DNA from: Scenedesmus sp. PABB004
Lineage: Eukaryota
Length of the DNA: 64,000 nt
Direction of reading: 5' to 3'
Assembly: GCA_014905635.1 (NCBI GenBank)
Contig: JABVCE010000023.1
Span: 248,001 to 312,000 of the forward strand
Positions 1-62,100 of this stretch are shown here, piece by piece. The position numbers and the translations under genes are program-made. Position 1 is the first letter of the stretch. Each line of letters starts with the position of its first letter. Below the pieces are notes generated by a model. The model worked only from the letters and a program-made list of their open reading frames with translations. It had not been told where the DNA came from and did not search any database.

Positions 1-3000
1 CGACGACGACCTGCTGGAGGTGCTGGGCCAGGCGTCCAGCGCGGGCGTCATCCAGGCGCACCTCAGGAAGCTCTTCGCCGGCATCCACCGCGTGCGCGGC
101 GCGGCGCGGCACGCGTGCTGCGGCGCGGCGCGCGGGCTGCGGCGCCGAGTGCGCGCGCTCCTCACCCCCGACCGCGCCCCGCCGCCCTGGTCGCTGCCTC
201 GTCTTATGTCGATGACATCGTCAGGTGCGCTTCAGCGCGGACCAAGGCTCCATCGTCGCCATGCTCTCGGCCGAGGGCGAGGCCGTCGAGCTGGACGCGC
301 CGGTCAAGGTGCGCCAGAGGCATGTTGGCGCGGCCAGCAGCTGCGCACGCGCACGCCCCACGCCCCACGCCCCACGCCCCACGCCCCGTACCCCCCTCGC
401 GCGCGGCCGGCCGCAGGTGACGGAGACGGTGGAGGCCTGGCTGGAGTCCCTCACGGCCGCGATGCGCTCGACGCTGCGCGCGCGCCTCGCCGGCGCCGCG
501 GGCCTGGCCGACCCGTTTGCGCAGGCGCCTGGCCAGGTGCTGGGGCTGTACCACGCGCTCAGCTTCACAGAGCGGTGAGCGGCGCGGCGCGAGCGCGGCG
601 GGCCCCGGCGCGCGCCGGCGGCTCAAGCAGCGACCCCACCGCCGCCGCAGCGTCGAGGCGGCCATCGCGGCCGGCGCGCTGCCGGCGCTCGCGGCGGCGC
701 TGCGCGGCGAGCTCGCGGCGCTGAGCGTCAAGGACTGCAGCGGGCAGGCGGTGCTGCAGCTGAAGAAGCAGGGCCTCATCATCGACCTGCTGCACAGCGC
801 TGACGTGGTGGAGGGGCTGCTCGCCGCCGAGGGCGGCCCGCCGCGCAGCGCGGGCGACTGGGCGTGGAGCCGGCAGCTGCGGTACTACGCGGCCGAGGCG
901 CGCGCGCGGCGCGCCGGGGCTCCCCGGCGGGCGCGGCGGCGGGGCTGGCGCCGCGAGGCGCTTCCGGCTCGGCCGAGCGCCGCTCCCGCGGGCCGCCGCC
1001 GCTGCACGCGCAGGACGGCGGCGTGGGCGCGGAGATGGCGACGGCGTCGCTGGCCTACACGTGGGAGTACTCCGGCAACGCGCCCAAGCTGGTCGTCACA
1101 CCCCTGACGGACCGGTGCTTCCTCACGCTCACGCAGGCGCTGGCGCTCGGCTACGGCTGCAGCCCCTATGGCCCCGCCGGCACGGGCAAGACCGAGTCGG
1201 TCAAGGCCCTGGGCCAGGCGCTCGGCCGCCAGGCGCGTGGCGTGCGATGCCTCGGCCACGCGCGTGCGCGCGCGCAGGTGCGCAGCCGCCCACTCGCCGC
1301 GCACCGCTTGTCACACACACACACACAGGTGCTGGTGTTCAACTGCGACGAGGAGTTTGACGTGCGCTCGATGGGCCGCATCTTCGTGGGCCTGCTGCGC
1401 TGCGGCGCGTGGGGCTGCTTCGACGAGTTCAACCGCCTCGGCGAGGACGTGCTGTCGGCGGTCAGCCAGCAGGTGCAGGCCATCCAGGCGGCGCTCAAGG
1501 ACGGCGCGCCGACGCTCGCGTTTGCGGGGCATCAGGTCACGGTCGACCCCGCGGCCGCGCTGTTTGTCACGCTCAACCCAGCGGGCAAGGGCTACGGCGG
1601 GCGCTCCAAGCTGCCCGACAACCTCAAGCAGATGTTCAGGCGCGGCGCGCGCGCGCGCGCGGGGCGCCGCCGCCGCTGCGGCAGGGCCCGCGCCGGACTC
1701 CCGGCCCGCGCGCGAGCCCCGCCGCCGCCGCGCCCGCGTCGGCCGCCAGGCCCATCGCCATGTCGGCGCCGGACAACGGCCTCATCGCCGAGGTGCTGCT
1801 CGCGAGCGAGGGCTTTGGCGGCGCCAAGGCGCTCGCGGCCAAGCTCGTGTCGCTGTTTGCCCTCGCGGGCGAGGGCCTCTCGCGGCAGGCGCACTACGAC
1901 TGGGGCCTGCGCGCGCTCAAGACCTGCCTCGGCGCGGCGGGGCGCCTGCTGCGCCAGGTTTGTGTGTGTGTGTGTGGGGGGGGGGGGCAGGAGGGCGTGG
2001 CGCTGGGGACGCGCCGCGCCGACGTGCCCCGCCGCGACGCGCCGCGCGCCGCAGCACCGCGCGTCTGGCGGCGCGGCGCAGGAGGCGTCGGCCGAGGCGG
2101 GCGTCGTCGTGCGCGCGGTGTGCGGCATCAAGCTGCCCATGCTGACGTTTGAGGACGTGTCCCGCTTCCGGGCGCTGCTGGGCGACGTCTTCCCCGGCGT
2201 CCCCGCGAGCGACGCGACCAACCCGGCGCTCGAGGCGGCGCTGGCCGACGCGGCGGCGGCGCTGGGCCTGGCGCTCACGCGGCAGCAGGTCGAGCGCGTG
2301 CTGCAGCTGCACCTCGCGTGCGAGCAGCGCACCGGCGTGATCATCATGGGCCCGAGCGGCAGCGGCAAGTCGACGCTGTGGCAGGTGCGCCGATACCTGA
2401 ACCCACAACCCTGAGCCCTGCTGACCTTGCTGCCCCACGCGCGCCTGGCGGCGGGCGGGCCGCCGCCGGGCTCGCGCCGCCGCCGCCGCGTCGCCACGAG
2501 CGCGCCCGCGCGTGCCCCCCTGCGCGCAGGTGCTGGAGGCGGCGCTCGGCCGGCTGGGCTGCGCGCCGGTGGTGCACCGCATGAACCCCAAGGCCATGCC
2601 CCGCCAGCAGCTGCTGGGCAGCCTCAACCTCGACACGCGCGAGTGGAGCGACGGCGTGCTCACCGCCGCCGCGCGCAGGGTGCGCCCGCCGCGCGCGCCC
2701 CCCGCGCGGCCACGCTGTGTGCCGCGCCGCGCCGTTGATGGCGCGCGCGCCCGCGCAGGTCGTGGCCGAGCCGCCGAAGCAGCGCAGCTGGATCGTGTGC
2801 GACGGCGACGTGGACCCGGAGTGGATTGAGAGCCTGAACAGCGTGCTGGACGACAACCGCCTGCTCACGATGCCACACGGCGAGCGCATCCAGTTTGGTG
2901 CCAACGTCAACCTGCTGTTCGAGTGCGACAGCCTCGCGTGGGCCTCGCCTGCCACCGTGTCGCGGTGCGCGCGCGCCGCCGCCGCCCGCGCGCTCCTGTC

Positions 3001-6000
3001 CCGCCGCCGCGGCGCGGCGCCCGGTCGCCGCAGACGGCGCGGCCGGCCCGGCGCCGACGCCGCCCCTCTCCCTGCCCCGGCAGCTGCGGTATGCTTCACA
3101 TGTCTGACGCCGCGGTGGACCACGGCGCCGTGCTCGCGCGCTGGCTCGCCGCCCGCCCGGGCGCCGACCCGGCCGGCCGCGCGGCGGAGTGGTTAGGCGC
3201 CCTTTTCCCCGCCGCGCTCGACCTCCTCGCCGCGGCGCAGCCCACGGTCGTCGTGCCCACCACGCGCTTCGGGCTGCTGGGCAACGTGCTGAGCCACCTC
3301 GGCGGCGGCGTGCGCTGCGCCGCCGACGTCGTCGCCGCGCTCGGGCGCGGGCTTGGCTTCACGCTGCCGCCGCAGCACCGCCGGGGCTTTGTGGCCGCGC
3401 TGCAGCGGTGAGCGCTGCGGCCGGGCGGCTCAGCTGGCCGGCCACGCGCGCGCAGCGCCCGCGCACTCACGCTCACCCGGCGCCCGCAGGCTGGCGGGGC
3501 CCGACGGCGCCGGCGGCGACCCGCTGGCGGTGCCGCCAGGCGACGACCCGCTCGCGGTGCCGCCAGGCGACGACCCGCTCGCGGCGCTGGACGCCGCCGA
3601 GGGTCTCGGCGGTGCGCTCGGCGCGGAGCTGCTGCTGGGCGGTGCTGGGCCTCGGGGCCTGGAGCACCTGGACCACCGGCTCATGCCCACAGACGACATA
3701 CGCGCGCTGCTGGCGGTGCTCGCGCCGTGGCTGGCCGAGCAGCAGCCCTTCCTGCTGGTGCGGGGGCTGGAGGGGGGGGGGGCGAGGTGGAGAGAGGGGG
3801 GGGTGCCGAGCTGGGTTGGCCGCGCGTGGCGGCTGAGCAGTCACCGCCGGGCCGAGCTGCCGACCCGCCGCCCGACCCGCCGCCGCGGCCGCCGGCGCCG
3901 GCGCAGGTGGGGCCCGAGGGCTGCGGCAAGTCCACGCTGCTGGACTATTGCTTCGCCCGCCTGCCCGGCCGCGTGACGGTCGCGACGGTGGCCTGCAGCG
4001 CGGCGACGGGCGCCGACGCCGTCATCCAGCGCCTGCTCGCCGCGTGCGGCAAGCCCGTGACGACGGCCGCGGGGCGCTGCCTGCGCCCCGACGGCGGGCG
4101 CCGCGTCATCCTGCATCTGAAGGACATCAACCTCCCGCGGTGAGGCTCCCGGGGCGCCGCGCACGGGCCGGCTCCGCGCTGCTCAGACGTGCGGGAGCAC
4201 GCGCGCCGCGCCGGCCGTCACCCCGCCGCCCGTCACCGCCCGCCGCCGCGGCGCCGCCGCGCCGGCCGCCGCCCCGCGCGCAGGCCCGACAAGTACGGCA
4301 CGCAGCAGGTGGTCGCGTTTGTGCAGCAGCTGCTCACGCACGGCGGCTACTACGACGCGGGGTCGCTCGAATTCATCCGCGTCGAGCGCGTGACGGTCGT
4401 GGCGAGCATGGTCCCCGGCGACGCGGGCGCCGCGGCGCTCAGCACGCGCCTCACCGCGCGGCTGCGCACCGCGGTGATGGCCCACCCAGACGGCGCCCAG
4501 CTGGAGGCGATCTACGGCCGCATGGTCCAGCAGGTCTTTGGCGCCAGCCCGCTGAAGCAGGCGGCGGCGCTCGCGGCCGCGGCGCCCAGCCTGGCGCGGG
4601 CGATGGCTCAGGTCTACCGCCAGGCGGCGGTGGACATTGGCGCCGGCGGCGGCGCCGGCGGGGCGCGCTGGGCGTTCGCGCCCGCGTTCACGCCGCGACA
4701 ACTCACGGCGTGGGTCCAGGGCCTGCAGCGGTGAGCGTGCGCACGCGCCGAGGCGGGCGGCCCAGCCGACGCGGCACGCGGGTGCACCAAACACCCGCCG
4801 CCCGCGCCGCGCCGCGCAGGTACGACCTTGCGCTGGTGGACGGTGTCGAGGCTGTGGCCGCGGAGGGCCTGGCCACCTTTGGCGGCTGCCTGCCCGACGA
4901 GGCAGCGGCGCGGCGCCTGGAGGAGATGATGCTGGGCGCGCTGCGCAGCTGCCTCGGCTACCGAGGCGCGCGGCGGGCAGGCGGGGCGGGCGCGGCGCGC
5001 GCGGCGCCGCCGCTGCGGCCCAGCGGCTGAGCGTGCGCGCGCCGCACTGCCGCGCAGGTGGCCTGCCGGCGCACCACTTCACCAGCCTGGCCGCCAGCCC
5101 CGACGCGCGTGCCGCGGCCGCGGGGCAGGCGATGCCGCTCACGCGGTGGGGCGGCGACGAGCTGCGCGGCATCGTCGCGGGCCACGTGCGCAGCTTCAGC
5201 CGCGAGGTGGCAGACCTGCCGCTGCTCATGGTGCCGCAGGTGCGCGGCGGCAGCGGGCCGGTCGTCAACGCCACCGCCTCGCGCGGGTGCGAGCGGCCCA
5301 TCACGCCGCCTCGCCGCCGCCGCCGCGCGCAGGCCCTGCAGCGCGTCGTGGCGCTGGACCGCTGCCTCTCCGCGCCCGGCGGCGCGGTGCTGCTGTGCGG
5401 CCCCGCCGGCAGCGGCCGCCGCAGCCTGGCGCAGCTTGTCGCGCACGCGCACGGCCTGCGCTGGTGGAGCCCCGCCGTCGCGCGCCGCTTCGACGCGAGC
5501 GCCTTCAGGGGTGAGCTCAAGGAGGTGCTGCGCACGGCAGGGCTCGCCGGCACGCCGCTGCTGCTGTACCTGGAGGAGCGCCACCTCGCGGACGACCCGG
5601 GTGTGGCGCGCTCGTGGGAGTGGTGCTGCCGCGCCGGCGGCGGCGCCGCCGCCCCTCAAGGAAGTGGCCGGTCGGCGGCCGCGGCCTCGAGCTGACCGCG
5701 TGCCCGGCGCCTGCATGCCGCAGGCGTGCTGGAGCTGCTCAACGGCCTGCTGTCGGGCGGCGAGGTGCCGAGGCTGTTTGGCGCGGACGAGCTCGCCAAG
5801 GAGCTGGCGGCGCTGGACGCGCGGCGCGACAAGGACGCGAGCTATACGGTCAGCGCCGCCGCGCGCCGCACTCGCCGCGCGGCCTGGCCCAGGGCTGCGC
5901 GCGGCTGACGCGCCCCTCGCCGCCGCGCGCCGTGCCGCCGCCGCAGGGCCCGCCCAACAGCCACGCGTACTTCCTGGCCTCCCTGCGGCGCAACCTGCGC

Positions 6001-9000
6001 GTCGCGGTGGCCATGGACCCGGGCGCGGAGGGCTTTGCAGCCCGCCTGGACCAGAACCCCGCGCTGCTGACCGCGTGCCACGCGCTGTGGTGGCAGGGCT
6101 GGAGCGCCGACAGCCTGCAGGCGATCGCGCAGGAGCGGCTGCAGGTCCGGAGGCGCGCGCGCGCGCGTGCCTGGCGCGGCGCGCGCGGCTCATGCCGCCG
6201 GGGCTGCCCGCAGGGCGCGCTGGCCTCGCTGGGCGTCTCGGACGAGGAGCGCGGCAGCCTGGTCGGCGGCCTGCTGGGGCTGCATGCCTCGGCCGCCGCG
6301 CAGCTGGGCGCGGCGCCGCGGTCGTTCATGGCAGCAACGGACCTCTACGCCGCCACCGTGGCCGCCAAGCGCGCGCAGCTGCTGGAGCAGCAGCAGTTCC
6401 TGCAGGCGCGCGCGCGGGGCCGAGCGACGGAGCGAGCGGTCGGTTGGCCGTCGCGGCGGCGTTGCTGCGGCGGCTGACGCGCTCGCCGGGCCGCCGTGCC
6501 GCGTTCGCAGAGCGGCCTGGCGCGGCTGGCGGGCGCCGCGTCCACGGTCGACGAGCTCAGCCGCCAGGCGGAGGCGCAGCGCACGCTGCTGGGCACCAAG
6601 CAGGCCGAGGCTGACACCGCGCTCAGCTTCATACAGGCGCGCCGGGCGGAGCTGACGCGGCGCCGCGATCGGCGGCACCCTTCGTGCCCCCTCTCACCAC
6701 AACCGCCACGGCCACCGCCCGCGCCCGCAGTCGTCCATGGAGGCCGCCGCCGACCGGCGGCGCGAGGTGGAGCAGCTCCGCACGCAGCTGGGCGTGAGCG
6801 AGGCCACGCTGCAGCAGCAGCGCGGTGAGCGCGCGCGCGCGCGCGCGCAGGCCTCGTCCGTCGGCGCGTGCGGCGCACCGCCCCGGGCGCTGACGCGCGG
6901 CTGCGCACGCGCACGCCCGGCCGCAGGTGGCGTGGAGGCGCAGCTGGCAGAGGTGCAGCCACTGATCGATGCTGCGCGCGCCGCCGTCGGCGGCATCAGG
7001 ACGGACCACATCAACGAGGCGCGCACGCGGGGCGGGGGGGGGGGGGCGCTGTGCGGTGCACGCAGCCGCGGCCCCGCCCGGCCCGCACCGCCTGGCCGCC
7101 GCCGAGCGCCGCCGCCGCCGCCTGCTGTGTGCGCGTGTGCGCGCGCGCGCACCGCAGGTCCGCAGCCTGCGCATGGCGCCTGACGTCATCCGCGACGTGC
7201 TGGAGGGCGTGCTGCTGCTGATGGGCTGCGAGGACGTGAGCTGGGCGGCGATGAAGGCGTTCCTGGGCAAGCGCAGCGTGAAGGACGACATTCTCAGCTA
7301 CGACGCACACAGGCGCGCGGCGCGCACCACGCGGACGGACGGACAGCAGGGCGCGCCGCGGCGATTGCAGGGCGCGCGCGCGGCCACTGGCGCTGTGCGG
7401 TCGCCGGAGCGGGCCGCCGAGGCGGTGACCCCGCTCGCCGGCGTCCGCCGCGGGGCGCAGGATCCTGACCACGCCCGGGCTGCGGGGCAAGCTTGAGCGG
7501 CTGATGGCGGCCAAGGGCGCGTCGTTTGAGCGCGACGCCGCGTACCGGGCCAGCCAGGCCGCGGGTGCGTGCGCGCGCGCGGGGCACGCCCGGCCGGGCG
7601 GCACGCCCTGCGCGCGCGCCGACGCTGGCACCGCCCCGCGGCGCCCGCAGGCCCTATGGCAGTGTGGGTGACCGCCAACCTTGCGTACAGCCAGGTCCTG
7701 AAGCAGATTGCGCCGCTGGAGGCGGAGCTGGCGGGCGTCACGGCGGGGCTGTCGGACAGCCAGGCGCGGCTGGGGCAGTGCCAGGAGGAGCTGGGCGTGC
7801 TGGACGACCAGGTGCGTGTGTGCGCGCGCGTGCACAGCACACCGCCCGCCGCCGGTCTGACCGCGGCGCCGACGGTCGCGCGACCGTGCCGCTGCGCACC
7901 AGGTGCTGCGCCTCAAGTCAGAGTTTCAGCTGCGCATCCGGGAGGCTGAGGCGCTCAAGCTGGAGCTCGCGCGCGCAGAGGGCACGCTCGCCGCGGCGTC
8001 GGGTGCGCGCGGCGCCGGCGGCGGCGTGCCTGGGGCGCGCGGCTGCGCTCACCAGCCCCCTCCTGCCGCCCCCGGCGCCGCCAGACCTGCTGGGCAAGCT
8101 TTCGGGCGAGCGCGAGCGCTGGGGCCGGCAGCTGGCGGGCCTGGACGGCCAGCTGGCCGAGCTGCCGCGCCTCGCGCTGCTCGCGGCTGCGGCCATGACG
8201 CACCTCACGCCCCACCCCGAGGACGTGCGCGACGGCGTGCTGTCGGGCTGGGCACGGTGCGCGGGCGGGGGTGGGCGGTGGGGGGGCTGCCGGGCGCGTG
8301 CTGTGTGTATGCGCGTGGGGGGCGCCTTGGACGGCTGCTGACCCACCGCCCCGCGACGCGCAGGGAGCTGGGGCTGCCTGGCTTCAGCCTGGCAGCCTTC
8401 ATGGCCAGCGAGGGGACGCAGCTCACGTGGCAGGGGCAGGGCCTGCCCGGCGACGCGCTGTCGGCGGACAACGCAGTCGCGATCTTGCACAGCCTGCGGC
8501 CGCCGCTCGTGATCGACCCGTCCTCACAGGTGACACTCGGGGCTGGTCCGGCCAGGGGGGCGTTGGCTTGCGCGCGCCGCCGCGCACGTGACCCCGCCGG
8601 CGGTGCCGCCTCGCCCTCACAGGCGATCGACTGGCTGATCGCGCACCTCAGGGCCGCGCAGGCCGAGGCGGGCAGCGCCGCGGCGGGGCTGGAGGTGGTG
8701 CCTGCGCACGACCCACACTTTGCCAACGCGCTGGAGCTGGCCGTGCGCTTCGGCAAGGTGTGTGCCTGCTGTGCCGGCACCGGCGAGCCTCGGCCCTCGG
8801 CCAGCGCCGGGGCGCCGAGCGTGGCGGCCCCTGCCTGGTGCACACCCGCGCTGAGCCCACGCGCGCACGCACGCGCGCGCGCTGCGGCAGGTGCTGGTGG
8901 TGTCCGAGGTCGACCGGCTGCCGCCCCTTCTCTACCCGCTGCTGCGCGGCGAGCACGTGAAGCAGGCGGGCCGCCTGGTGCGTGCGCCGCTCGCGTTGCG

Positions 9001-12000
9001 CCGACACGGCGGCACGTGTGCGGCGCAGCGCTGACGCGCGACGGTCGCGCGGCGCAGGTCGTGGCCGTGGGCGAGCGCCTGGTGGAGCTGAGCCCCGGTT
9101 TCAAGCTGTACCTCGTCACCCGCGACGCGGCGCCACGCCTGCCGCCCGACGCCGCGCCGCTGCTGACGGTCGCCAACTTCAGCATCACGCGCGGCGGGCT
9201 CGAGCGTGAGCGGCCGCCGGAGCGGCACGCGCGGCGGCAGCCGTGGTGCCGGCGCGCCCCTGGCGGCAGCGCCGCCGCGGCCGGCCGGCCGCGCGCTTTA
9301 TGACGAGCCCCCCCCTCTCCCCCTGGCCGCCTGCAGGCCAGCTGCTGAGCGTGACGCTGCAGCACGAGCAGCCGGAGCTGGAGGCGCGCCGTGCGGCGCT
9401 GCGCGCGAGCGAGGTGGGGCTGAAGCTGCAGCTCGCGCAGCTGGAGAAGGCGCTGCTGCAGGCGCTGGCCAGCAGCAGGTGCGTGTGCAGACGCACGCGC
9501 GCGGGCTCGGCGCGCGCGCGTGCGCTCAGTCGTCGGCTGCGGCGCGCGGCGCGCCCCGAGCGCCGCCGCCGCGCCGCGCCCGCGCGCAGCGGCAACCTGC
9601 TGGAGGACCGGGCCCTGCTCGCCTCGCTCAACGACACCAAGGCCCAGGCCAGCAGCGTCGCCGCGGCACTCGCCGACGGCGCGGCGCTCGCGGCGGCGCT
9701 CGACGAGCAGCGCGGCGCGTACAGGCGCGACGCGCGCGCGCGCGCCTGCGCGCCCGCCCCTCGCCCGCCGTGCTGCTCTTGGCGACGCGAGCCCCGCCCC
9801 CGCCCCCGCTCGTCGCAGGCCGCTGGCGGCGCGCGGCAGCCTGCTGTACTTTTCGCTGCTGGGCCTGCGGCGGCTGGACTCGATGTACTGCTTCAGCCTG
9901 GGGGTGAGGGCGACGCGAGGCTGCCGCCGCACGCGTGCGGGTGTCAGTTGAGCTCCTCCGACTGCCCTGACCGCCCTGACCACCGCCCCGCCCCCTCGAC
10001 CGCGCTCAGGCGTTCATGGGAACGTTCCGGCGCGTCTTCAGCGCCGCGCCGCCGGCGGCCGGCCCCGGCGCGAGCGGCGGCGGCGCCGACCTCGCGGCGC
10101 GCAACGCGCTGCTGTGCGACGTGCTGCTGGAGCTGGTGCACGCGGGCGCGGCACGCGCGGTGCTTGCGCGCGACCAGCTCCCGCTCGCGCTGCACCTCGC
10201 GCGCAGCCTGCTGCCCGAGCAGTTTCCCTCGGACGAGTGGGCGGTGCTGCTGGCGTGCAGCAGCTCCGCCGGGGGCGGCGCCGCCGCGGCCGGCAGCGGC
10301 GAGCTGCCCGCGAGCGCGGGCGGCCTGCACGGCAGCGCGCCGGCCGGCTGCCCGAGCTGGGTTGGGCCGGACCGGGCGGCGGCGTACGAGCAGGTTGCCG
10401 CCTCGCTGCCCGGCCTCGTCACGGCGGCGGCGCTGCACGACGCGCGGCTGTGGGCGCCCTGGGCGTCGGCGACCGACGGCGACTGCACTCCGCCGGGCGT
10501 CGCGGGGCGGCTGCGACCGCTGCAGCAGCTCGTGCTGGTGGCTGCCTTCCGGCCCGAGTGGTGAGCTGGGCGGGGGCCCGGGCGGCGCGGGCGGCGCTGC
10601 CCTGCCTCGGCACCCGTCACCGCCGCGTCAACCGCCGCGCGCTGCCGCAGCCTGCCGGCCGCCGCCGCCAAGCTGGTCGGCGGCCTGCTGCGCCTGCCCA
10701 GCCTCGCGCCGGCGCCGCTGAGCGTGCGGGCGCTGCTGGAGGGCGAGCGCGGCGGGACGGGGGCCGCCGGCGGCGGCGGCGGCGGCGGCGCTGGGCCGCG
10801 GGAGCCGCTCCTCTTCATCACCACGCCCGGCGCCGACCCCAGCCAGGACATCGCGGCCTATGCAGACGGCCAGGTGCGGCCGCGCCTGCACTGCACTGCG
10901 CTTCGCGCCTGTGGGGTGCGCCGCCGTGCCCGCCGCGCGCCCGAGGCGCGCGCGGCGCCTCTGACCTCCGCAGGCCGGCCGCGCGCGGCTGCACGAGGTG
11001 GCGATGGGCCAGGGCCAGGCCGAGGTCGCGCTGCAGCTGCTGCGCGAGTGCGCCGGCAGCGGGGACTGGCTGCTGCTGAAGAACCTGCACCTGGTCGTGG
11101 GCTGGCTGCCGACGCTCGAGGTTGCGGTGCACAGCCTCGGCGGCAGCGCGCACCCGGGCTTCCGGCTCGTGCTCACGAGCGAGCCGCACGCGCACTTCCC
11201 GCCCTCCCTGCTCGAGGCGGCGGTCAAGGCGCGGCGCGGCCGCCCCGCCTAGCTGGGGCGTGCGCGCGACGGCCCGCGCGCGGCCGCCCCGGCGACCGGC
11301 GCCCGCCCGCCCGCCCGCCCGCCTGCAGGTCGTGTTTGAGGCGCCGCCGGGGGTGAAGCGGAACCTTCAGCGCACGTACGCGTCTTGGAGCACCGACTAC
11401 CTGGCCGGCCGCGCGGGCGGCGCGCCGCCCGTGCCGGCCGCGCTGGTCCCGCTGCGCGCGCAGCTGCTCTTCCTGCTGGCCTGGCTCAGCGCGCTGCTGC
11501 AGGAGCGGCGCAGCTACGTGCCGATCGTGAGCCGGGGGGCAGGGCGGGGCGAGGCGCGCCGCCGGCGCCAGCTACGCGCGGCGCCCCGCCGGTGTGCGCC
11601 TCGCCGGCGCGACCGGTCGCGCCGCCGCCCTCGGCCGCCCGCGCGCGCCGCCTGGGCGCAGGGCTGGGCCTCGGCGTACGACTTTTCGCTCGCCGACCTG
11701 CGCGCGGGTGCGGATGTGGTGGCCCGCGCCGCGGCGACGTGCGGGCCGGCCGGCCCCGACTGGCGCGAGCTGCTGGGCCTGCTGGGCGTCGTCTTTGGCG
11801 GCCGCGTCGACGCGGCGCAGGACGCCAAGGTGGGGCGCCGCGCGGCAGCGCGCCGACGCGCTGCGCGGCCAGCGGGGCGACGCGGCGGCACCCGCACCCG
11901 CGCGCCCACAGGTGCTGCTGGCGCACCTGGCGAGCGTGGTCAGCCCCGACCTGCTCACCGCGCTGCCGCCGGCAGCGGGCGGCGGCCAGCGCGGCCGCCG

Positions 12001-27781: not shown

Positions 27782-27837
27782 CGCGGCGGCCGTGCGCGGC
27801 GGCTTGTGGGCCCCCCTGTTGAGACTCGGCCGGCGCT

Positions 27838-36839: not shown

Positions 36840-36872
<33 letters not shown>

Positions 36873-47590: not shown

Positions 47591-50500
47591 CTACTGCTGC
47601 TCGTCCTGCTCCGTCTGCTCTGGCCGCCGCTCCTGCTCCTGCTGCCGGTGTGGGCGCTCCTCCTGCTCCTGCTCCCGCTGCTGCCGCTCCTGCTGCTGCT
47701 CGCTGCTGCCTGCCGCGCTGCAGCCAGCCCCGCCCCTGGCCCTGCTGTTGCCACTGCTGCCGCCGCCGCCCTGCGCCTGTTGCGCCTGCGACCGGCCGCG
47801 CGCCTGTGCCGCCGGCGGCCGCCGCGAGAGCGCGAGCTGCGCGAGCGCCGAGCCCTCCAGGAAGCTCGACAGCTTCACCGGCGCCAGCACGCGCACCTCA
47901 CCGTCCGCGTTGTCGGCGCGGCGGAGGTGCACCTCCTGCGCCAGCACCGCGGGCGGGCCGCGCGTGAGCGGGTCGCAGATCCCGCCGCGCCTCCCAGGGC
48001 CCCTCCCCTCCCAGGCCCCGCCGCTCCGCCCGCCCGGCCGCACGCGGCCGCGCCTCGAGCCGGCCGTCGCGGTAGGCGTGACGGTAATGGCAGCTTGAGC
48101 CAAAGGGGCACACGCCGTCGCCGTGCGCAAAGTTGGCGCAGTCCTTGGCCGCCATGGCCGCCTTGTAGCGGCCCACGATGCCCTCCTTCTCGGCCGGGCT
48201 GTCGGGCCACTTGGTGCTGGGCGTGATGAAGTGCGTCGGCACGCGGCAGAGCGGGCACGTGCGCAGCGCCTGCGCGCCGACCGCGGCGCGGCGCGCGCGT
48301 GGGTGGCGGCCGCGGCGCGCGTGCGCGTGGGCGGCGGCCGCGGCGCGCGTGCGCGTGAGCGGCGGCGCGGCGCCCGGCGCCCGGCGGTCGTGGACGCGGC
48401 GCCGGCGCGGCGCGCACCGTCTTGGTGTCGGCGCCGTCGGTCGCGCGCCAGGCGCGAATGCAGCCGATGCAGAAGGGGTGGTCGCAGGCCAGCAGGCCGA
48501 AGCGCCGCGCCGAGAGCGCCGGCTTGGAGAGCACGCGCTCGAGGCAGATCGCGCACTCGATCTCGCCGTCGCGGCGGCGCTTGGCGATGCTCGCGGCGAG
48601 CGCGCCGCACGACGCCGCGTGCGCCGCCGCCGCCGCGGGCTGCGCGGGGTGCAGAAGGTGCTGCCCGCACACCTGGCGCGGCAGCGGCGGCGGGGCGGCG
48701 GAGGCGTGAGGGGGCCGGCTGCGGCTGCGGGGCAGGGGCGTCGGGCGTGTGAGTGTGAGTGTGAGTGTGAGTCAGCGGCGCAGGGGGTTGGGCGAGAGCG
48801 TTTACACGCGGAGGTGGCCGATGAGTCGCAATGCCACGGCGGGCAATACACGAATCCGTCCCCGCCGCCCGCCCGTCACCCACGCGCCGGCATCGCCCCC
48901 CCAGGCACGGCTCAGCTGCCTCAGTGCTGCGGGCGGGTCTTGCAGAGCGCTGGACGGGCATGGGCAGTGCAGTGCAGTCGGGCCGCTGCGGCAGGGGCGA
49001 GCAGGCCGCCGCCAACCGGTCGCCAAGCCCGGCCCCCCAAGCGACCCCACGCCCTTGCGTGACCGACAGCGCGCCGTGCTCACGCTGCAATCGGCAGTGC
49101 ACCCTGGGGCTCCCGGGCGGCTGCTGTCGCCGCGCCCGCCCCAAAAATGAGCCCCCCCCCCCTCCCTCCTTCCCCCTCCCTCCCTGCAGCAACAGGCGCC
49201 CATGGCAGGCCGGCGCTCGGGAGCAGCCCCGGCGGGCGGCGGCGGCGGCGACGGCGAGGGGCCTGGGAGCCCCCGTGCGCGCGTGCGCGCCGCCGCCCGC
49301 CTCCGCCGAGGGAGGGCGCAGGCGCAGCCCAGCGCACAGCGGCGCGCCGCCACGTTGGCGCGGCTATGGTACAGCCGCGCGCCCCGCCCCCGTCCGCCCT
49401 CCAGCCCGGACGCCCCCGCCCCCGGGCGTGCAGCGGCGCCGGCTGCGCCGCTGGCTCAGCTGCCGAGGCTGGCCGCTGCCAGCCGGTCCGCGATCTCGTC
49501 CGCGCCGCCGCCGCCGCCGCCCGCGCTGCCCGGCTCCGCGGCGCCGTTGGCGCCGGCCATGGCCTCCCTGCAGGCTGCCGTGTGCGTGGCTGTCCAGTCG
49601 GGGTTGTAGGGGTGGCAGCAGAAGTAGCCGCAGATCTGCAGCGGCAGCGGCAGCAGCGGCGGCGGCGGGCCCCGGCTGCTCAGGTGGCGTGTGCGGCCGC
49701 GCCGGCGCGCCCGCCGCGCTTTGCAGGCTGCCGGGGGGCCCGCCGCCGCGCTGCCGGGCGGAGCGGGGACTCGCTGCCGGCGCGGCGCTGCTGCCCAGCC
49801 CCCCTGCCCCTGCGCGGTGGCGCCCGAGCCCGAACAAGCCCCAACACGCGCAGCCCCGACCGAGGACGCCCAGTCGCAGCCCCGATCGCCCCGCCGCCGC
49901 CCGCCCGCCCGCCCGCCCGCCCGCCCGCCCGCCCGCCTGGCCCGACCGCCCGGCCCGCCCCCCGCCGGGCGCGTGCCGGCGCTTGCCGGCCGCCGCACCT
50001 CGCAGGCGTCGCCGTGGACGTAGAGGCAGTCGTCGCCGGCGCTGCAGGCGCCCGTCTCGGCGTACTCGCTGCAGAGCGGGATGTCGGCGGGGTCCATCAC
50101 CTCGCCCTCGTCGTCGCCGCCGCCGCCGCCGCCGGCGCCGGCGTCGCGCGCCGGCGGCCCCGCCTCGGCCGCGTCCTGCTCCGCCTGCCAGGCGTCAAAC
50201 TCGTCCATCTCGTCCGGCGTGAGAAAGTCGTCCCAGTTGGGCGCCGCGCCACCGCCGCCGCCAGAGCCGGAGCCCGCGCCGGGCGCGGGGCCGGCGGCGG
50301 GGCGGTGCACGCCCGGCGGCGGCACGTAGTTGCTGCGCGCGCGCGCGTGCGAGGGCGCGCGGGCGGGTGAGCCGGGCGGGCGGGCCGGGCGACGGCAGCA
50401 GTGCGCGGGGGCGCGGCGGCGGCGCGGCGGGCGGTTCCAGCGCACCTCGGCGGCGCCGGCTGCCCCCGCGAGCTCCACGACGGCTTGCTGTGCGCGTAGC

Positions 50501-50926
50501 GGCAGCGGTCGCCGTAGGCGCAGTTGCCCTGCAGGTAGAACTTGCAGACCTGCGCGGCGCGCGGCCGGCGGCAGCGCGGGCGTCGGCGGCGGCGCGCGGC
50601 GGGACGCGGGCGGCGGCGCGGCGCGCGGCGGCCCCCTCCGCCCGCGCCTGCGTGGGCTCGTCGCTGCGGTTGTGCGAGAAGCGGCAGCGGTCGCCGTAGG
50701 CGCAGGCGCCGTTCATGAAGTACTTGCAGAGCACGCTGCAGCAGCGGCGGTCGCGGCGGCGGCGGCGCGCGTGGGCGGACTGCCGCAGCGCAAACCGACG
50801 GGCTACCAGGCAAGGGTGTCACGCCGGCGCGATCCCCCGGGGCCGGGCAAGCGCGCCCGGGCGCGGGGCGGGCGGCGCGGCGGCCGCGGGGCGTGCATGC
50901 GGCCGGCCGCCGCACTTGGAGGTCAT
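47591..50926 (-). CDS. MKRN: Makorin (MKRN) CCCH zinc-finger/RING E3 ubiquitin ligase, long isoform
   Basis: MTSN|VLCKYFMNGACAYGDRCRFSH, VCKFYLQGNCAYGDRCRYAH, LCSEYAETGACSAGDDCLYVHGDACE|VCGQHLLHP...H..SC, RING CAICLE...FGLLACDHPFCIGCIRAWR...RTCPLCR, final CCCH CANFAHGDGVCPFGSSCHYRH. Stop TAG at 47591. Confidence 0.93.
48802..48806 (-). terminator. TGTAA polyadenylation signal for the short makorin isoform
   Basis: ttaca on + reads TGTAA on -. It lies downstream of the exon-A stop and upstream of the exon-B acceptor (48674-48673). Confidence 0.6.
49456..49635 (-). CDS. MKRN: Alternative terminal exon of makorin (RING-less short isoform)
   Basis: Acceptor ctgcag at 49637/49636, phase 0. Encodes ICGYFCCHPYNPDWTATHTAACREAM...LGS*, paralogous to the start of the RING-bearing exon at 48672. 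Confidence 0.75.
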   Translation of the reverse strand: MCGYFCCHPYNPDWTATHTAACREAMAGANGAAEPGSAGGGGGGADEIADRLAAASLGS

Positions 50927-52916: not shown

Positions 52917-53021
52917 GCCGCTGCGACGCGGCCGGCCGCGGTTTTGTTGGGCGCACCCGCGCGGCGGGGGTGCACCGGGCGCGCGACGGTTGCAGCGCGA
53001 GCGAGCGAGCGACAGTGAACC

Positions 53022-54167
53022 TCACTTCTTCTTGCCGCCGCCGCCGCCGAGCGCTGCCTTGACCAGCTCAGCGACCTGCTTGGCGTCGGCGCGGCCCGCC
53101 ACGCGCGCGGTCACCGCCTTCATCACCGCGCCCATGGCCTTGGGCCCGCCGCCGCCGGCCGCCGCGACCTCCTCCGCCACGATCGCCGCCAGCTCGTCCG
53201 CGCTGAGCTGCGCGGGCATGTAGCCCAGCAGCACGGCGAGCTCCGCCTCCTCCTGCGGAGCGGCGCGGCGGCGGCGCCTCGTTTGTGGGCAGAGGGCACA
53301 CGCTTGGGTGGGCCAAACAAGTCTCGAGAGCCCGCCGCCGCGGCCCCCGCGCGCGCGAGCCCGCCGCCGCCGCCGCCGCCGCTGCCGCGCCTTGTCCGCG
53401 AGGTCGGGGCGCCCGCCTGCTCGGTACTGCTCGATCGAGTCGCGCCGCTGCTTGACCATCTTGGCCAGCACGCCCAGCACCTCGGGCTCGCTCACCTGCA
53501 GCAGCAGCGGCCGCGGGCTGGGGGCGGCGCCGGCGCCGCGGCCCGCGCGGCGGCGCCCGCCTCGACGCGCACCGGCTTGCCCGCCTCGCGCAGCTCGATC
53601 TCGCGCTGCTTGATGGCCGCCGAGAGGAAGCGGATCGTGTCCAGCCGCGCCGCCTCCTTGGCGCGCATCGCCGCCTGCGTGGCGCGGCGCGGCCCGGCGC
53701 GGCGCGGGCGGGGTCGCGGGCGGGGTCGCGGGCGGGGTCGCGGGCGGGGTCGCGCGCGCCGCGAGGCAAGCCCCGCGGGCACGCGTGCGAGGCGCCCTCC
53801 CCCTTGCTCCCGCCTGCTCGCGCCTTCATGTCGTCCTTAATTCGGCCGAGCAGCTCCGGCGCGGTGCCCCCGTCGGCCGCCGCCGCTGCGACGACGACGT
53901 GGTGGTGGTGCAGCGCGCGCACCGGCGCTGGCCGGCACGCCGCGCCGCGCGGCGGCGCCGGCGAAGCGACGCCCAGCACCGCCACCCGGGCGCGCTGTGT
54001 GTGGGCGGGAGGCGGGCGGGCGCGTGGAGGGAGGGGGCGGCCGCGCTGCAGCGGCGAGTGCTGCAGCGGCGCCGCTGCCGCCCGCCGCCGCCGCGCCCGC
54101 GCTGCCTGGCGCGCACCGCTGCACACGCCATGCGCAGCCTTCGAACGCCGGTGTGGAGCCAGGCCAT
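53022..54167 (-). CDS. GatB/YqeY-domain protein (AIM41-like), organelle-targeted
   Basis: Spliced LLGRIKDDMK|AAMRAKEAARLDTIRFLSAAIKQREIE...VLAKMVKQRRDSIEQYRAGGRPDLADK|EEAELAVLLGYMPAQLS...KAMGAVMK...GRADAK. The start (54167 or 54131) is less certain. Confidence 0.9.
53709..53753 (+). repeat. 12-bp tandem repeat (cggggtcgcggg) x4 in a YqeY intron
   Basis: Direct reading. Confidence 0.8.
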
Positions 54168-54713: not shown

Positions 54714-57700
54714 ATGCGAGCTCGGCGCGGGCTGCGGCGGCGCTGGCGGCCGCTGGCGCTGCTGGCGCTGCTGCCGGCGGCCAGCGTCCTGGCGGGCGGC
54801 GCGCGGACCGTGCGCGCCTTTGTGCCCTCCTGCGCGTGGGACGACGAGGTGGTCAGCTGGCCGACGGCGCAGCGTTTCAGCGGCGTCACCGTGGACCTGC
54901 TGGCCAACGACCCGCCCGAGCGCCAGCTCGAGTGGACCGCCGACGGCCCGACCGCCGCCGGCTACAGCCGCCGCTGCGAGCGCGGCACGCTGACGCCCGC
55001 CGGCGCGCGCGGGCTGTACAACTACCTCCCGGACGACCCCACGCTCTCCCTGGCCGGCGGGTTCGACAGGTGCCCCTACCAGCTTGCCAAGCTGGGGTGG
55101 GACCAGCCCGCCTGCGCGAGCGAGGCGGACATTGAACCAGGTGAGGGCACCGCCAGCTCCCAAACGCGCCGCCCTGACGTGCGCCGCGCCGTGCGCCCGC
55201 TGCCCGGCCGCGCTGACGCGCGCCGCGGCGGCGCGCGCCGCGCAGAGCCCGTGCCGCCGGTCGCGGTGGACGATTTGTTTTACATCGGCGCCGCGTCGTC
55301 GGTCGCGATCAACGTCCTGGACAACGACCGCAGCGTTGAAGGCATTCCCTACTGGCCTGAGACCGGCAGCGAGCTCGTCAACTTCACGCAGCCCCGCCAC
55401 GGCACGGTCGCGATGGCCAGCACCTACCTGCCCTGCGGCAGCATGCGCGCCGCCGCACGCGCTGCTGCCGGGCGCGGCCGCCGCGCGGCGACGGCCGCGC
55501 CCGCCGCCGCGGGCGGGGGCGGGGCGTCCGACTGGCGGGTCAAGGGCACGCTGCAGTACACGCGTGACCCGGGGGCGCCGCTGCCCTACGTCGACACCTT
55601 CACCTACACCATGACCGGCAGCTGCTCCGGCCCGCCCGCGCCCTGCGACGGCGGCCGCTGCGCCACCGCGACCGTCACCATCGTCGCGTCGGGTGCGCCG
55701 GCCGGCCCAGGCCCAGCCCACCCCTCGCGCCGGACGAGCGCACTCACTCGTGCGCCGCCTGCCGCGCGCGCCGCGCTCCCGCCGCAGGCGTGCCCGCGGC
55801 CGGCACCGAGACGACCACCTTTGCGCTCCCCGACGGCCAGGGCGGCCGCGTCATTCCCAGCCTCATGCTCCCGGGCACGCCGCTCGACGGCGCGGGCGGC
55901 GCGCTGCGCTTCGTAGCGCTCCAGGGGCGCGCGCGGCACGGCACGCTCACGCGGCTCTCCACCTCGGCCGACGGCGCCGCGCGGTTCCAGTATGCCGCGC
56001 GCGCGGGCGCCGCCGCCGTGAGCGACGTGATACCGTACACCGCGGTCGCGAGCACCGGCGAGCTGCAGCGCGGGACGCTCATCATTGACATTGCAGGCGC
56101 GCCGCAGCGGCGCCCGCGCGGCGCCCGCGCTGCTGCCGGGGCCAGCGGGCGCGCGCCCCCGGCCCGCCGCACCGCGCCGCCGCCCACCCGGCCGCCGCCG
56201 CGCTGCCCCGCCGCGCAGCCGCCCCCGGGACGTCGGGCGCCAACACGCCGCCGGTCGCGCTTGACGTCTGGGATGAGGTGAAGCTGAGCCCTGTGGGCAG
56301 CTCGTTCAATAAACACGTCATCAACGTCCTCTCCAGCTGCCACGACGCCGACGGCGACGAGCTGCGCGTGTCGCAGCTCTCGCAGCCGACGCTGGGCCGC
56401 GTCGCGGTGATCGACGACCCCGCCAGCCCGCTGCGCGGCGCGCTCACCTACGACGCGCCGCCCGGCGGGGGCCGTTTGTGGACAGGTTCACGTACAGGGT
56501 CGCCGATGCATGGGGCGCCGAGTCGCAGCCGGCCACCGTGACGGTCACGGCGAGTGAGTCAGGGGTACCCGCGGGCGGGAGCGGCGGCGGCAGCAGGCGG
56601 TGGCGGCGCCGACGCGCACCGCCCGCCGCGCGCCCTCCCTCCAGGTTCGCTCTGCCGCCAGGGCAGGCCGCCGATCGCGGTCGACGACGCCGTGAGCGTG
56701 CCGGCGGGCGGCAGCGCCTTCGTTGACGTGCTGGCCAACGACGTCGTCAGCCCCTCCGGCGCTCCGCTCGCGGTGACGGTGCACACGCTCCCGCGACACG
56801 GCACGCTCGAGCGGCGCGACGCCGGCGGGTTTGAGTACGTGCCGCTGCCAGGGGTGGGCGGCGTGACCGACAGCTTCACCTACCTCATCACAGACGGCAG
56901 CGCGACCGCGCAGGACGTCGGGGCGCGCGTGAGCATCACCATCGCAGGCGCGCGCGCGGGGCCCCGCCGCTGCCGGCGCCGCGCGCGCGCGCGCGCACGC
57001 CGCGCGCTGACGCCCCGCGCGGCCGCCGCCGCGCCGTGCAGGCGGCGCGCCGCCCAACCGCGCGCCCGTGGTGCCGCCGCGCGAGGTCAACCTCACGCTC
57101 GGGTCGCGCCTGCCCTGGCCGTACAACGAGACGTTCCAGCTCGAGCTCGACCTGCTCGCGGGCGCGGCCGACCCCGACGGCGACGCGCTGGCCGTGACGG
57201 GCGCGGCGCCGGAGTTTTCGTTTGGCGACTTTTGCGCCGCCGAGTGGGCGCCCAAGCGGCTCAAGGCCAAGCCGAGCGACCCCTACGACACCGAGACCTA
57301 CCCGAGCGACCACGTCTTCACGCTGACCTTTAATCGCCTCTGGCTCGGCCTGCGCGGCACGGACCCGCCCGTCTACGACTGCCCGACCAGCATCCCAATA
57401 AAGTTCTGGGTCTGGGATGGCAAGGACACGACGCAGGGCACGCTGCACGTCAAGTTTGCGCTGCGTGAGCGACCCCGCCGCGCGCCCGCCGCGGGCTGAA
57501 CGGCCGCCACACCAAGTGCGCCCGAGCCACGCCCACGCCGCCCCCGCCGCCGCCGCCGCCGCGCGCGCGCGCGCGCGCGCGCAGGGGGCGACCCGCCGCG
57601 GCGGCCCGTGCTGGACGCGGCGGCGGTGCCGTCGTACGAGGTCGCGTACGGCGGCGCGCTGGAGATTACCAACCTCACCGCCTACGGCCACCACCCCGAC

Positions 57701-59166: not shown

Positions 59167-62100
59167 TCACAACTCTTCGTGCACCGGCAACTCTTCGTCC
59201 TCGGCCGCCGCCTCGGCGCCGGGGCCGCTGCCCTCCGCCGCCTTGCCGCCGGCGCCCGCGGAGCCGCCCTCGCCCGCCTCGCCCGCCTCGCCGGCGCCGC
59301 CCGCGCCGGCGCCCGCCTCGCCCTCCGCCGCGCCGCCGGCGCCGCCTGCCGCCTCGCCCTCCTCGCCCGCCGCGGCGTCGCCCGCCGCGGTCTCGTTCTT
59401 GGCCGCCGGCGGCGGCTTGGGCTTGCGCTTGGCGTCGGTCTTCTTCACCGCCTTTTGGACGCCCTCCCAGCGCGTCACGACGTCCATGGCCACAAACGCG
59501 GGCTCCTCCGTCGCGCCGCGCCCTGCCTGCGCCGCCTCCTGCTCCGCGAGCCAGGCCCGGAACTCAGCAATCTGCGGCCGCGGCGGCGCGGGGGCAGGCG
59601 GGCAGGCGTCGGCGCGGGGCCCAGGCGCCCACGGCCGAGCGCGCGGCGCGCGCCGGCGGCGCGCAGCCCGACCGCGCGCGCCGGCGGCGCAGAGCCCGAC
59701 CGCGCGCGCGCGGCGGCGGCGCCGTGGCAGCGCCGGCAGCGCGCCGCGCCTTGTCGGCCGCCGCCTGCGTGTCCTCCTCCCCGATCCAGGGCTTGGCCTC
59801 GGCCCAGCCCGCGACGAGCGCGTCCGCGGCGGCCGCGCTCTCCCGCACCGCGGACAGCACCTTGGGGCGCAGCTCGAGCTCCGCCGCGCGGCGCGCGATG
59901 GGGTCGCCGACCGCGCGCAGCGCCGCGAGGCGCTCCCTAAACGCGTCGCCGCCCTCCGCCTCGCCGTCGCCGTAGAGCCAGTCCTCGGCCGCCGTCAGCG
60001 CCTCGACAAACGACACGCGCGCCGCCTCCTCCGTCACCTGCGCGGCGCGGCGGCGCCGCCACGCGCGCGGCGTGGGCGCGCCGCGCGCCCCGCCCCGCCA
60101 GCCCGCTCCCCCACTACACACACACCCCGCCGCGGCGCGCCGCGGCGCGCGCGCGCCTGCTGCACGGCCTCGTCCGTCTCGAGGCGCTCCCGCGTCGCGA
60201 TGATGTACGCCTCGAGGTCGTTCTTGGCCTTGGCCGTCGCCGCCTTGACCGCCTCGGCCGCGCGCCACGCCGCGACGTGCGCGGTCGCGTCGGCGAGCGC
60301 GTCGCCGCTCAGCGGCGCGTGCCGCGGGCCGGGGCCCGTCACGTTCAGCGACACCTGCGCCCGCGGCGGCGCGCACAGCTCGGCCGGCGGCAGCCGCAGC
60401 GAGCCGGGCCCGCGCCCGCGAGGGAGCACCGCTCGCGCTGCAGCGCACACACGGCGCCACTCACGTGGTACACCTTGCGGCGCGGCACGGTGATGGTCTT
60501 CTTGACCAGCACCACCTTGGGCTTGGCCTCGCCCTTGGCCTTGCCCTTGGCGCCGCCCTTGGCCTCGCCCTCAGCCGCCTCGCCCTTGTCCTCGCCGCCC
60601 TCCGCCTCGTCGGCCTTGGCGGCACCCTCGGCCTCGTCGGCCTTGGCGCTGCCCGCCTCTTCGCCCTTGGCGCCCTCCTCCTTGTCGCCCTTGGCGTCAC
60701 CTGCCTCCTCGCTCTTGGCAGCCTCCGCCTCGTTGGCCTTGGCGTCACCTGCCTCCTCGCCCTTGGCAGCCTCCGCCTCGCCGGCCTTGGCGCCGCCCGC
60801 GTCGCCGGCGTCGGTGTCGTTGGCGGGCAGGGGCACCTCGATCACGCGCTCCTCCATCACCTCCAGCTCCACCACGCACTCGGCAGACGCGAACGAGAGC
60901 AGCCCAGACAGGTCGGCCTCAAACCGCAGCGTCGTCACGCCCGAGTGGTTGTAGCTGCGGCGCGGCGTGGCGCGGCGGCGGCCACGGCGGCCGTCGCGCG
61001 GCGCAAGAACGGCGCGGCAGCCTCCCTCGCCCTCCCTCGCCCTCCCTCGCCGCCCACCGCGCCGCGCCGCTGCAGGGCGCGCGGGCCGCACCGCTCGATG
61101 GCGTCTGTGATGCCGGCGACGGTGTAGGCCGCGAGCGCGGGGTCGCACACGCCCGGCGGCAGGCCGTGCGGCGTGGAGGCGTTGTACGCGAGCGCAAAGG
61201 AGAAGCCGTCGATGGTGAGGTTGCTGTACTTGACCGCGCGCTTGATGGGCAGCTTCTTGCCTGCGCGCAGCGGCGGCGGCAGCGGCGGCGGCGTGGGCAA
61301 GTCGGGGCGTGGGCGTGGGCGGGTCGGGGCATGGGCGGGTCGGGGCGCAGGCGGGCGGCGCGGGCGCGGCCCCGCCCCGCCCCCGAGTGTGCGCGCACCG
61401 GCGGGCAGCAGGTTCTTCAGCACGTGGCCGGGCTTGCCGGCCTCGCCGCCGGCCGCCGCCTCGGCGGCGGCACCCTTGGCCTTGGCCTTGGCGCCCTTGG
61501 CCGCGCCCGCGCCCGCGTCGGCCGGCAGCGCCGCGCTGGGGGTGAACAGGTCGTCGCTCTCAAACGTCACCCCAAACGCGGCGACGTCGGTCATGCCGAA
61601 TTTCTGGGCGGCACGCGGCACGGGCCGGCACACGCGCGGTGGCAGTCAGCGCGGCGCGGCGCGGCAGGCGGCGCGCCGCACGGCGCGGCGCGGCGCGCAC
61701 CCGCAGCCGGAAGCTGCTGGACAGGTTGGCGGCAAACAGGCCCGCGCCCAGCACGAGCGCCTCGTCCGCGTCCAGGTGGCGGTCCAGGTGCCTGGCGGCA
61801 GGCGGCGCGGCGGGGCGCGGCGGTGGGCGCGCGCGCCGACGCCGCAGCTGCCGCCGCGCCGCGCTCCCCGTGCCGCGCCGCGCTGCCGCAGCGCTCTCCG
61901 GCCCCCCGCACCTGCCGCCGAGCGCCTCCGACAGCACCGCCTGCAGCTTGGGCACGCGGCTGCCGCCGCCCAGCAGCTCCACCGCGTCCACGTCGCCGGG
62001 CTTGAGCCCGTTGCGCTCCAGCAGCTTCGTCAGCGGCGCCTGGGCGGCGCGCGGCGGCGCGGCGCGGCGGTCAGGCGGCGCCCCCGCGGCAGGCGGCCGG

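Follow-up and report, generated by a model that had tools for sequence, protein, structure and literature searches.

The window and the sample of introns

The stretch analysed here, referred to below as the window, comprises 64,000 nucleotides of Scenedesmus sp. PABB004 (contig JABVCE010000023.1, positions 248,001 to 312,000) and has a G+C content of 79.3% (A 6605, C 25582, G 25162, T 6651). It carries the 3' part of a gene for the cytoplasmic dynein-2 heavy chain, genes for acyl-CoA oxidase (ACX) and for Grp170/HSP70-17, and further genes related to Nup88, MRS2, PAT1, makorin, YqeY-domain and immunoglobulin (Ig)-like proteins. The feature of interest is the frequency of introns that begin with GC in place of GT and end with AG. 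Among 68 introns that could be mapped by homology 15 (22%) were of this GC-AG type, with 12/42 in the dynein-2 gene, 2/11 in the Grp170 gene and 1/15 in the acyl-CoA oxidase gene. These three genes constitute the counted sample, which is not a genome-wide one. The genome of Scenedesmus sp. (glucoliberatum) PABB004 was reported by Calixto Mancipe et al. 2022, as cited in PMC13248705, and a table in PMC12571836 gives it as 39.8 Mb with 78.5% G+C and 7,092 genes. It is one of the most GC-rich eukaryotic nuclear genomes in the literature consulted.

All six frames are open over long stretches at 79% G+C and exons were therefore placed by homology. Our own protein-to-DNA spliced aligner was employed, with references taken from protein searches; it allows three intron phases and split codons, keeps the acceptor fixed as AG, gives GT and GC donors equal weight and is blind to the bases that flank the donor. 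A caveat that must be applied to its output is that equal weighting yields too many GC donors with distant references.

The acceptors of the 68 mapped introns were CAG in 67 cases and GAG in one, all 15 GC introns ending in AG. Their length varied between 76 and 209 bases (median 114) and was not related to donor type, nor was there a significant difference in interior G+C (87.3% in GC-donor introns versus 85.7% in GT-donor introns, p = 0.15). An all-versus-all blastn comparison of 77 introns returned 852 short hits of 73-100% identity in shifting registers, from GT and GC introns alike; in this comparison, which had no shuffled control, the cross-hits look like GCG-rich low complexity and a distinct repeated (introner-like) family is not apparent. 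A scan of the window against Rfam gave 0 matches at the gathering score, hence no small nuclear RNA (snRNA) lies within it.

GC-AG introns of the dynein-2 heavy chain gene

The dynein gene occupies 2..13323 (+) and was identified by a protein search whose hits bear the name cytoplasmic dynein 2 heavy chain. A curated model, based on spliced alignment with P0162, P0211 and P0260, was arrived at; it has 2950 codons, is open through to the stop codon and is interrupted by 42 introns, 12 GC-AG and 30 GT-AG. A preliminary description of this DNA, made from the letters and their open reading frames, had put the number of GC donors at about 12 of 42 and had drawn several of the junctions so as to restore conserved dynein motifs; both the number and those junctions agree with the curated model. 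With P0162, the best full-length reference, the blind aligner hit 11 of the 12 donors exactly and set the twelfth at 4970. Its first pass comprised 43 introns, 26 GT and 17 GC, and of the latter 11 fell at the donors claimed earlier, all after AG, with six others having no AG before them. The GC calls at 3446 and 5578 left an in-frame stop and were dropped in favour of GT-AG introns at 3408-3489 and 5601-5723, the second of which was picked by 2/3 references. The call at 4970 was shifted four bases to 4966 by frame and signals, those at 5863 and 8261 were replaced by GT donors at 5849 and 8257 on signal grounds only, and that at 10303, a 33-base 'intron' in a variable loop, was dropped, the shortest accepted intron being 76 bases long.

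To test the junctions, the 35 residues on either side of each one in the model were joined into a peptide that was compared with metagenome loci, and a junction was scored as ungapped when there was no gap within 8 residues. The comparison set consisted of 80 dynein-2 loci from one scan, the best of them 76% identical. Nearly all of these loci were without introns at the two junctions examined and they were therefore used as intron-free controls and not as a source of orthologous introns. Control GT junctions and GC junctions behaved alike. Most GT junctions were fully ungapped (for example 62/62, 52/52 and 59/59), the exceptions being a few junctions in variable loops (0/23, 0/13).

Nine of the GC junctions, all on the + strand as are the other dynein introns, were ungapped in homologous DNA (a slash below marks the boundary of exon and intron). 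The intron at 1233..1328 (96 nt, in frame, cag/GCGCGTGG) was ungapped in 75/75 spanning matches, whereas the GT alternatives at 1242 and 1278 were each ungapped in 0/75. For 1640..1749 (110 nt, phase 2, cag/GCGCGGCG) the figures were 78/78 and, for GT 1634, 0/78; for 7019..7157 (139 nt, gag/GCGCGCAC, found with 3/3 references) 32/32 and, for GT 7051, 0/25; for 9725..9818 (94 nt, phase 2) 34/34 and, for GT 9719, 0/19; and for 11229..11328 (100 nt, aag/GCGCGGCG, 3/3 references) 37/37 and, for GT 11223, 0/35. The intron at 12503..12612 (110 nt, cag/GCACGTCC) has the weakest donor signal of the set (0.2), but was ungapped in 12/12 matches against 0/9 for each of GT 12497 and GT 12518. At these six sites, then, the GT alternatives were gapped in every spanning match. 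The other three of the nine are 6406..6510 (105 nt, in frame), ungapped in 18/18 and placed here by 2/3 full-length references, with a GT alternative at 6439 that found a match in one locus only; 6637..6730 (94 nt), ungapped in 18/18 and placed by 3/3 references; and 13012..13110 (99 nt, in frame), ungapped in 7/8.

Three sites lie where the junction test is uninformative. The intron at 898..1013 (116 nt, gag/GCGCGCGC) falls in a length-variable region and 12/69 spanning matches were ungapped; the junction of 4966..5057 (92 nt, gag/GCGCGCGG), placed by frame and signals, is poorly conserved and was spanned by no homolog among the metagenome loci; and that of 7313..7460 (148 nt) is in a variable loop with 0/24 ungapped. 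Because of this 898 and 4966 rest on the lack of any GT alternative and 7313 on its signals, and the last is regarded as a probable GC-AG intron, its donor scoring 7.0 versus -0.2 or less for GT alternatives that would need indels of 9-30 residues. No frame-preserving, stop-free GT-AG alternative was found within 60 bases of 898, 4966, 6637 or 13012. Retention of the intron at 898, 4966 or 6637 would shift the frame, and the introns at 898, as had been claimed, and 13012 hold no GT at all. Overall 9/12 of the dynein GC introns have a length that is not a multiple of three. At each of the 10/10 sites with references (at most 8 for each) alignments restricted to GC donors beat those restricted to GT donors, by as little as +4 (12503, one reference) and as much as +670 (898, 8 references).

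Some further features of the gene were recorded. Within an exon, a direct tandem repeat of ~27 bases at 3514-3577 (+) encodes GDDPLAVPP twice, in a region without counterpart in homologs. Two introns contain dinucleotide microsatellites: a (CA)n tract at 1310-1328 (+) runs up to the acceptor of 1233-1328, and a (GT)n tract at 1958-1975 (+) adjoins the donor of 1958-2054 (cag/GTTTGTGTGT). Among the metagenome loci L004 (1-20309) is a eukaryotic contig of 74% G+C with a dynein-2 gene that is 75% identical in the AAA1 exon and is uninterrupted at both junctions examined.

GC-AG introns of the Grp170 and acyl-CoA oxidase genes

The Grp170/HSP70-17 gene (59170..63589, -) has 11 introns, 9 GT and 2 GC. 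Its references were P0271, the HSP70-17 of Scenedesmus sp. PABB004, and four homologs (Volvox, Chlamydomonas, Tetradesmus and one more), all of which were aligned. P0271 could be spliced onto the window with 1036/1036 residues identical and no gaps, the first exon being 100% identical. Both GC-AG introns, 59572..59749 (178 nt, -) and 60038..60156 (119 nt, -), were obtained with 5/5 references and both contain a stop codon if retained. P0271 codes through an 81-base in-frame stretch at 62040-62120 (-) at which the four homologs splice a GT-AG intron (gcg/GTGCGCCG ... CCCAG), and the deposited Grp170 model has probably kept an intron here. The count of 11 introns includes this one, as shown by the homologs.

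Spliced alignment of 6 references to the acyl-CoA oxidase gene (21502..25991, +) gave 15 introns, 14 GT and 1 GC. The GC-AG intron, 23452..23589 (138 nt, +, aag/GCGCGCGC), was found with 6/6 references, and solved ACOX1 chains align on both sides of the stretch and skip it. The protein ends in PKL, which presumably resembles a peroxisomal targeting tripeptide.

Donor context

A strict dependence on the end of the exon became apparent from the 68 mapped introns. Exonic AG at -2/-1 was present at 15/15 GC donors versus 18/53 GT donors (Fisher p = 2.3e-6), so that C was found at +2 in 15 of the 33 donors after AG (45%) and in 0 of the 35 donors without it. The preliminary description had stated that donors lacking exonic AG are all GT and this was borne out, with the limit that 5849 and 8257 were set to GT on signals only. 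The ratio C/(C+T) is 0.855 in intron interiors and ~0.94 at third codon positions. Since C at +2 reaches only 15/33 and 0/35 versus 0.855 in intron interiors, T is still favoured there; selection for T at +2 persists everywhere and is much weaker behind exonic AG. The further proposal that the AG compensates for C at +2 under GC pressure is partly borne out. GC donors occur only behind exons that end in AG, and it is there that the constraint for T, although still present, is much relaxed.

Two donor classes could be distinguished among the 68, AG/G(T/C)GCG and NN/GTG(A/C)G. All 15 GC donors carry C at +4 and G at +5, and the GC donors share GCG from +3 to +5 with the AG/GT donors. An A at +4 was found in 13/35 GT donors without AG, in 2/18 GT donors with AG (p = 0.06) and in 0/15 GC donors, a pattern that suggests a trade-off between pairing on the exon side and on the intron side. 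When all 24 positions at which GC donors had been claimed in the window were inspected, the dinucleotide followed exonic AG on the coding strand at 24/24. The claim that most read AG/GCGCG was also accurate (23/24, the exception being 12503 with AG/GCACG). The U12-type GC-AG signature GCATCC at +1 to +6 (PMC1557818) was found at 0/24 of these sites, all of which read GCGCG or GCACG.

A donor weight matrix was built from the 30 dynein GT donors with positions +1/+2 omitted. The 12 dynein GC donors had a mean score of +5.5 (range 0.2-7.5), above the leave-one-out mean of 3.3 for the GT donors with the same matrix, whereas the gene's remaining 2821 GC dinucleotides scored -6.9 +/- 5.2. AG precedes 12/12 of these donors versus 3.1% of the other 2821. 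As the flanking bases are invisible to the aligner, both the matrix scores and the AG context constitute independent support. For the three genes the aligned models show where the GC-AG introns begin and end, how frequent they are and that exonic AG precedes each GC donor.

Further candidate sites in the window

The preliminary description had listed about 12 GC donors outside the dynein gene. Those of ACX (23452) and Grp170 (60156 and 59749) are supported by the homology given above, and a fourth, the intron at 53253..53390 (138 nt, -) in the YqeY-domain gene, by the Pfam YqeY profile, which is continuous from position 75 to 76 across it. The other eight are candidates, for which splice signals and coding frames provide the support. 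All eight read AG/GCGCG, have matrix scores of 3.9-7.5, CAG acceptors and lengths not divisible by 3, and are flanked by sequence that has coding potential in the frames needed on either side. Searches of Pfam with flanks of 40-50 residues found nothing for the MRS2, PAT1, Grp170 and most Ig flanks.

The second candidate of the YqeY-domain gene, 53675..53823 (149 nt, -), has a downstream exon that begins at profile position 10 and no GT-AG alternative. In the Nup88 gene the candidate at 20078..20172 (95 nt, -, cag/GCGCGTGG) has a signal of 7.5 and a downstream exon that aligns to solved Nup88 chains from its first residues; the upstream exon had no match in the solved-structure search. The candidate of the MRS2-like gene, 30091..30217 (127 nt, +), is placed by signals and coding frames, its donor scoring 4.8 versus 0.7 for GT 30121, and that of the PAT1-like gene, 40015..40115 (101 nt, +), likewise by signals and frames, with no GT inside. 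Two candidates belong to makorin-like sequence. That at 47936..48053 (118 nt, -) has a CCCH finger in the upstream exon and no frame-preserving GT-AG alternative, and that at 50550..50647 (98 nt, -), with a signal of 5.8, would separate two CCCH fingers, a complete finger ending the upstream exon and the next starting at residue 1 of the downstream exon.

The last two candidates are phase-1 introns of the Ig-like gene, 56097..56218 (122 nt, +) at the end of an Ig-like repeat, placed by signals and frames and with no GT inside, and 56948..57041 (94 nt, +) at the end of the next repeat, its upstream exon giving a weak Big_9 match. This gene has four successive Big_9-type repeats with phase-1 introns at the same repeat position (55693, 56097, 56948 and 57465, +). 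Two repeat ends in GCAG are followed by GC donors and those in TCGG and CTGC by GT donors, so that the AG rule can be seen within one gene.

Origin of the GC donors

The GC-AG introns are most probably ordinary U2-type spliceosomal introns with a GC 5' splice site that has been relaxed under GC pressure. Strong GC-biased substitution would replace A/T by G/C at any position that tolerates it. At +2 a T normally pairs with U1 snRNA and a C would break one U1 pair, which would be tolerated only where A-2 and G-1 of the exon supply extra pairing; wherever it is tolerated, GC-biased substitution would fix it. On this model the GC donors would be the subset of the AG/G(T/C)GCG class, ~45% of it, that now has C, while the NN/GTG(A/C)G class would keep T without exception. 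The ceiling on the share of GC donors would then be set by the number of donors with spare U1 pairing and not by composition alone. We infer that recognition is by unmodified U1/U6 and that the direction from T to C is driven by composition.

An alternative is that the splicing machinery has itself been adapted, through a changed U1 5' end, U6 ACAGAG box, U1C or Luc7, such that GC has become a second canonical donor. Nearly half of the AG-class donors are GC (15/33), and canonical U1, to judge from its 5' sequence, would pair poorly on the intron side of donors that all have C at +4 and G at +5. T at +2 is, however, still strongly favoured (C in 45% and 0% versus 85.5% in intron interiors). 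A role of base modifications or U1 snRNP (small nuclear ribonucleoprotein) proteins has been proposed for other GC-rich algae (Iwata and Gotoh, PMC3033335), but the same work found putative U1 5' ends to be canonical in Aureococcus and Micromonas, and an adapted U1 is therefore not required. A strict need for exonic AG is moreover the prediction for an unmodified U1 with a mismatch at +2 (PMC1557818). Adapted machinery is on this evidence an improbable explanation. Equally doubtful is a variant in which +2 would be a near-free pyrimidine after AG (classes AG/GYGCG and NN/GTGMG), enabled by a lineage-specific change in U1 snRNA, U1C/Luc7 or the U5/U6 hand-over.

Relaxed U2-type introns must also be set against the view that the true donors are nearby GT dinucleotides or that the stretches are retained, the protein having small lineage-specific indels and the GC donors being an artefact of forced homology. 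An in-frame GT does occur 6-9 bases from five dynein sites (1242, 1634, 9719, 11223 and 12497), that at 1242 reading GTGCGA, and five GC introns could be read through in frame without meeting a stop. However, the GC models are ungapped at precisely the six sites where no GT alternative gave an ungapped match, and the frame shifts at 898, 4966 and 6637 come without a usable GT. GT alternatives score from -12.1 to -1.8, with the exceptions of 1278 (+4.8, for a 51-base intron and +15 residues) and 12507 (+0.5), whereas the GC donors mostly score 3.9-7.5. Artefacts would also not be expected to have AG before 15/15 homology-placed donors, and this view was considered very unlikely. Less credible still, to the point of being nearly negligible, are systematic T-to-C errors of base-calling or polishing in the assembly, as these would not single out position +2 in 24 introns, each of them behind AG, and the coding sequence is otherwise intact, with 2950 dynein codons open and full identity to the deposited Grp170 protein.

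A number of observations nevertheless weigh against the introns being simply relaxed by composition. The GC share is uneven between the three fully mapped genes (29%, 18% and 7%). PABB004 with 78.5% G+C has a lower share of GC donors than Emiliania (65%; 56% GC donors) or Aureococcus (69.5%; 39.6%), so that the GC-AG share is not determined by composition alone. For three of the dynein GC introns, as for ACX 23452 and YqeY 53390, retention would be compatible with the DNA, since they keep the frame and contain no stop; in the case of 13012 it would leave a 33-residue insert. The sites at 7313, 898 and 4966 are in the variable or unconserved stretches described above. The introns at 5849 and 8257 fit homologs slightly better as GC introns without AG, with donors at 5863 and 8261 (summed bits for GC versus GT of 1133 versus 953 and 1233 versus 1175). 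The GT donors score +3.6 and +5.8 versus -6.7 and -7.1 for GC twins of identical length and the acceptors also favour GT; they were assigned as GT because of these splice signals only, and the AG rule at these two positions depends on that choice. If they are GC introns the AG rule is not absolute. Finally, the support for removal of GC-AG introns from the mRNA of PABB004 is indirect, the deposited P0271 lacking both Grp170 GC introns and intron-free homologous DNA lacking nine of the dynein ones.

Comparison with known systems

GC-AG introns make up 0.37-0.87% of introns in model organisms, where C at +2, mismatched with U1, is offset by a better match elsewhere in the 5' splice site (Sheth et al. 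2006, PMC1557818). Those of PABB004 are similar to these U2-type GC-AG introns in that the mismatch is compensated by a better 5' splice site and the acceptors are as in GT-AG introns, but differ from those of the species in that study in their frequency of ~22% and in that only the exon, through its AG, provides the compensation, +4 and +6 remaining C.

Much higher shares have been found in GC-rich algae. Iwata and Gotoh 2011 (PMC3033335) linked high genomic G+C to an excess of GC-AG introns and gave shares of 39.6% for Aureococcus anophagefferens, 22.2% for Micromonas pusilla CCMP1545 and 7.7% for Chlorella sp. With its 79.3% G+C and 15/68 GC-AG introns the window conforms to the type represented by Aureococcus, M. 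pusilla and E. huxleyi, taken as a nuclear genome of more than ~65% G+C with a GC-AG share far above 1%. PABB004 resembles the algae of PMC3033335 in having a nuclear genome of high G+C, a double-digit percentage of GC donors in ordinary short introns and AG acceptors that are kept. Unlike them it belongs to the Sphaeropleales of the Chlorophyceae, and at 78.5% G+C its share is still below that of Aureococcus, although the comparison is one of 68 introns in 3 genes with genome-wide shares. The strict AG/GC rule and the two donor classes were measured in PABB004 and were not found stated in the available part of PMC3033335. In Emiliania huxleyi 56% of 241 curated junctions were GC-AG, nine of them confirmed by reverse transcription PCR (RT-PCR) (Feldmesser et al. 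2014, PMC4028052). As in that alga, the GC donor of PABB004 is ascribed to genomic G+C, the acceptors are canonical and ab initio models can be misled; in contrast to Emiliania, where GC donors are the majority and are RT-PCR-confirmed, they are a minority here and are read from the DNA.

The GC-AG habit is thus already known from other GC-rich algae, and PABB004 is a further case that is extreme in its G+C. A literature search found no paper tying GC-AG introns to Scenedesmus or its relatives, most subscription journals being outside that search. PABB004 supplies an extreme point for the published, unexplained link between G+C and GC-AG introns, and the ceiling that would be set by spare U1 pairing is a testable quantitative statement on selection at 5' splice sites.

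Implications for annotation

Gene finders that admit only GT donors would break or shift about 1 in 5 introns in PABB004. The preliminary description had gone further in expecting that ab initio annotation would mis-model these genes, and the evidence on this is divided. The deposited P0271 already splices out both Grp170 GC introns, contrary to that expectation. The C-terminal exon of ACX (25782-25991, +), on the other hand, had no 100% match in the protein collection, the best being 84%, whereas the Grp170 exon had one, and the public annotation, with its 7,092 genes, may lack the ACX gene or have modelled it wrongly. Most relatives have ~13,000-18,000 genes (table in PMC12571836), and in view of the difference a GC-aware re-annotation could change the gene set, which has served as reference for annotating another alga (PMC13248705). 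One region of the window stands apart from its surroundings in its gene structure. Two very long frames (748 + 1649 codons) at 32369-39636 (-) show high coding potential and nothing that suggests an intron, unlike the adjoining genes, which carry ~1 intron per 300 bases.

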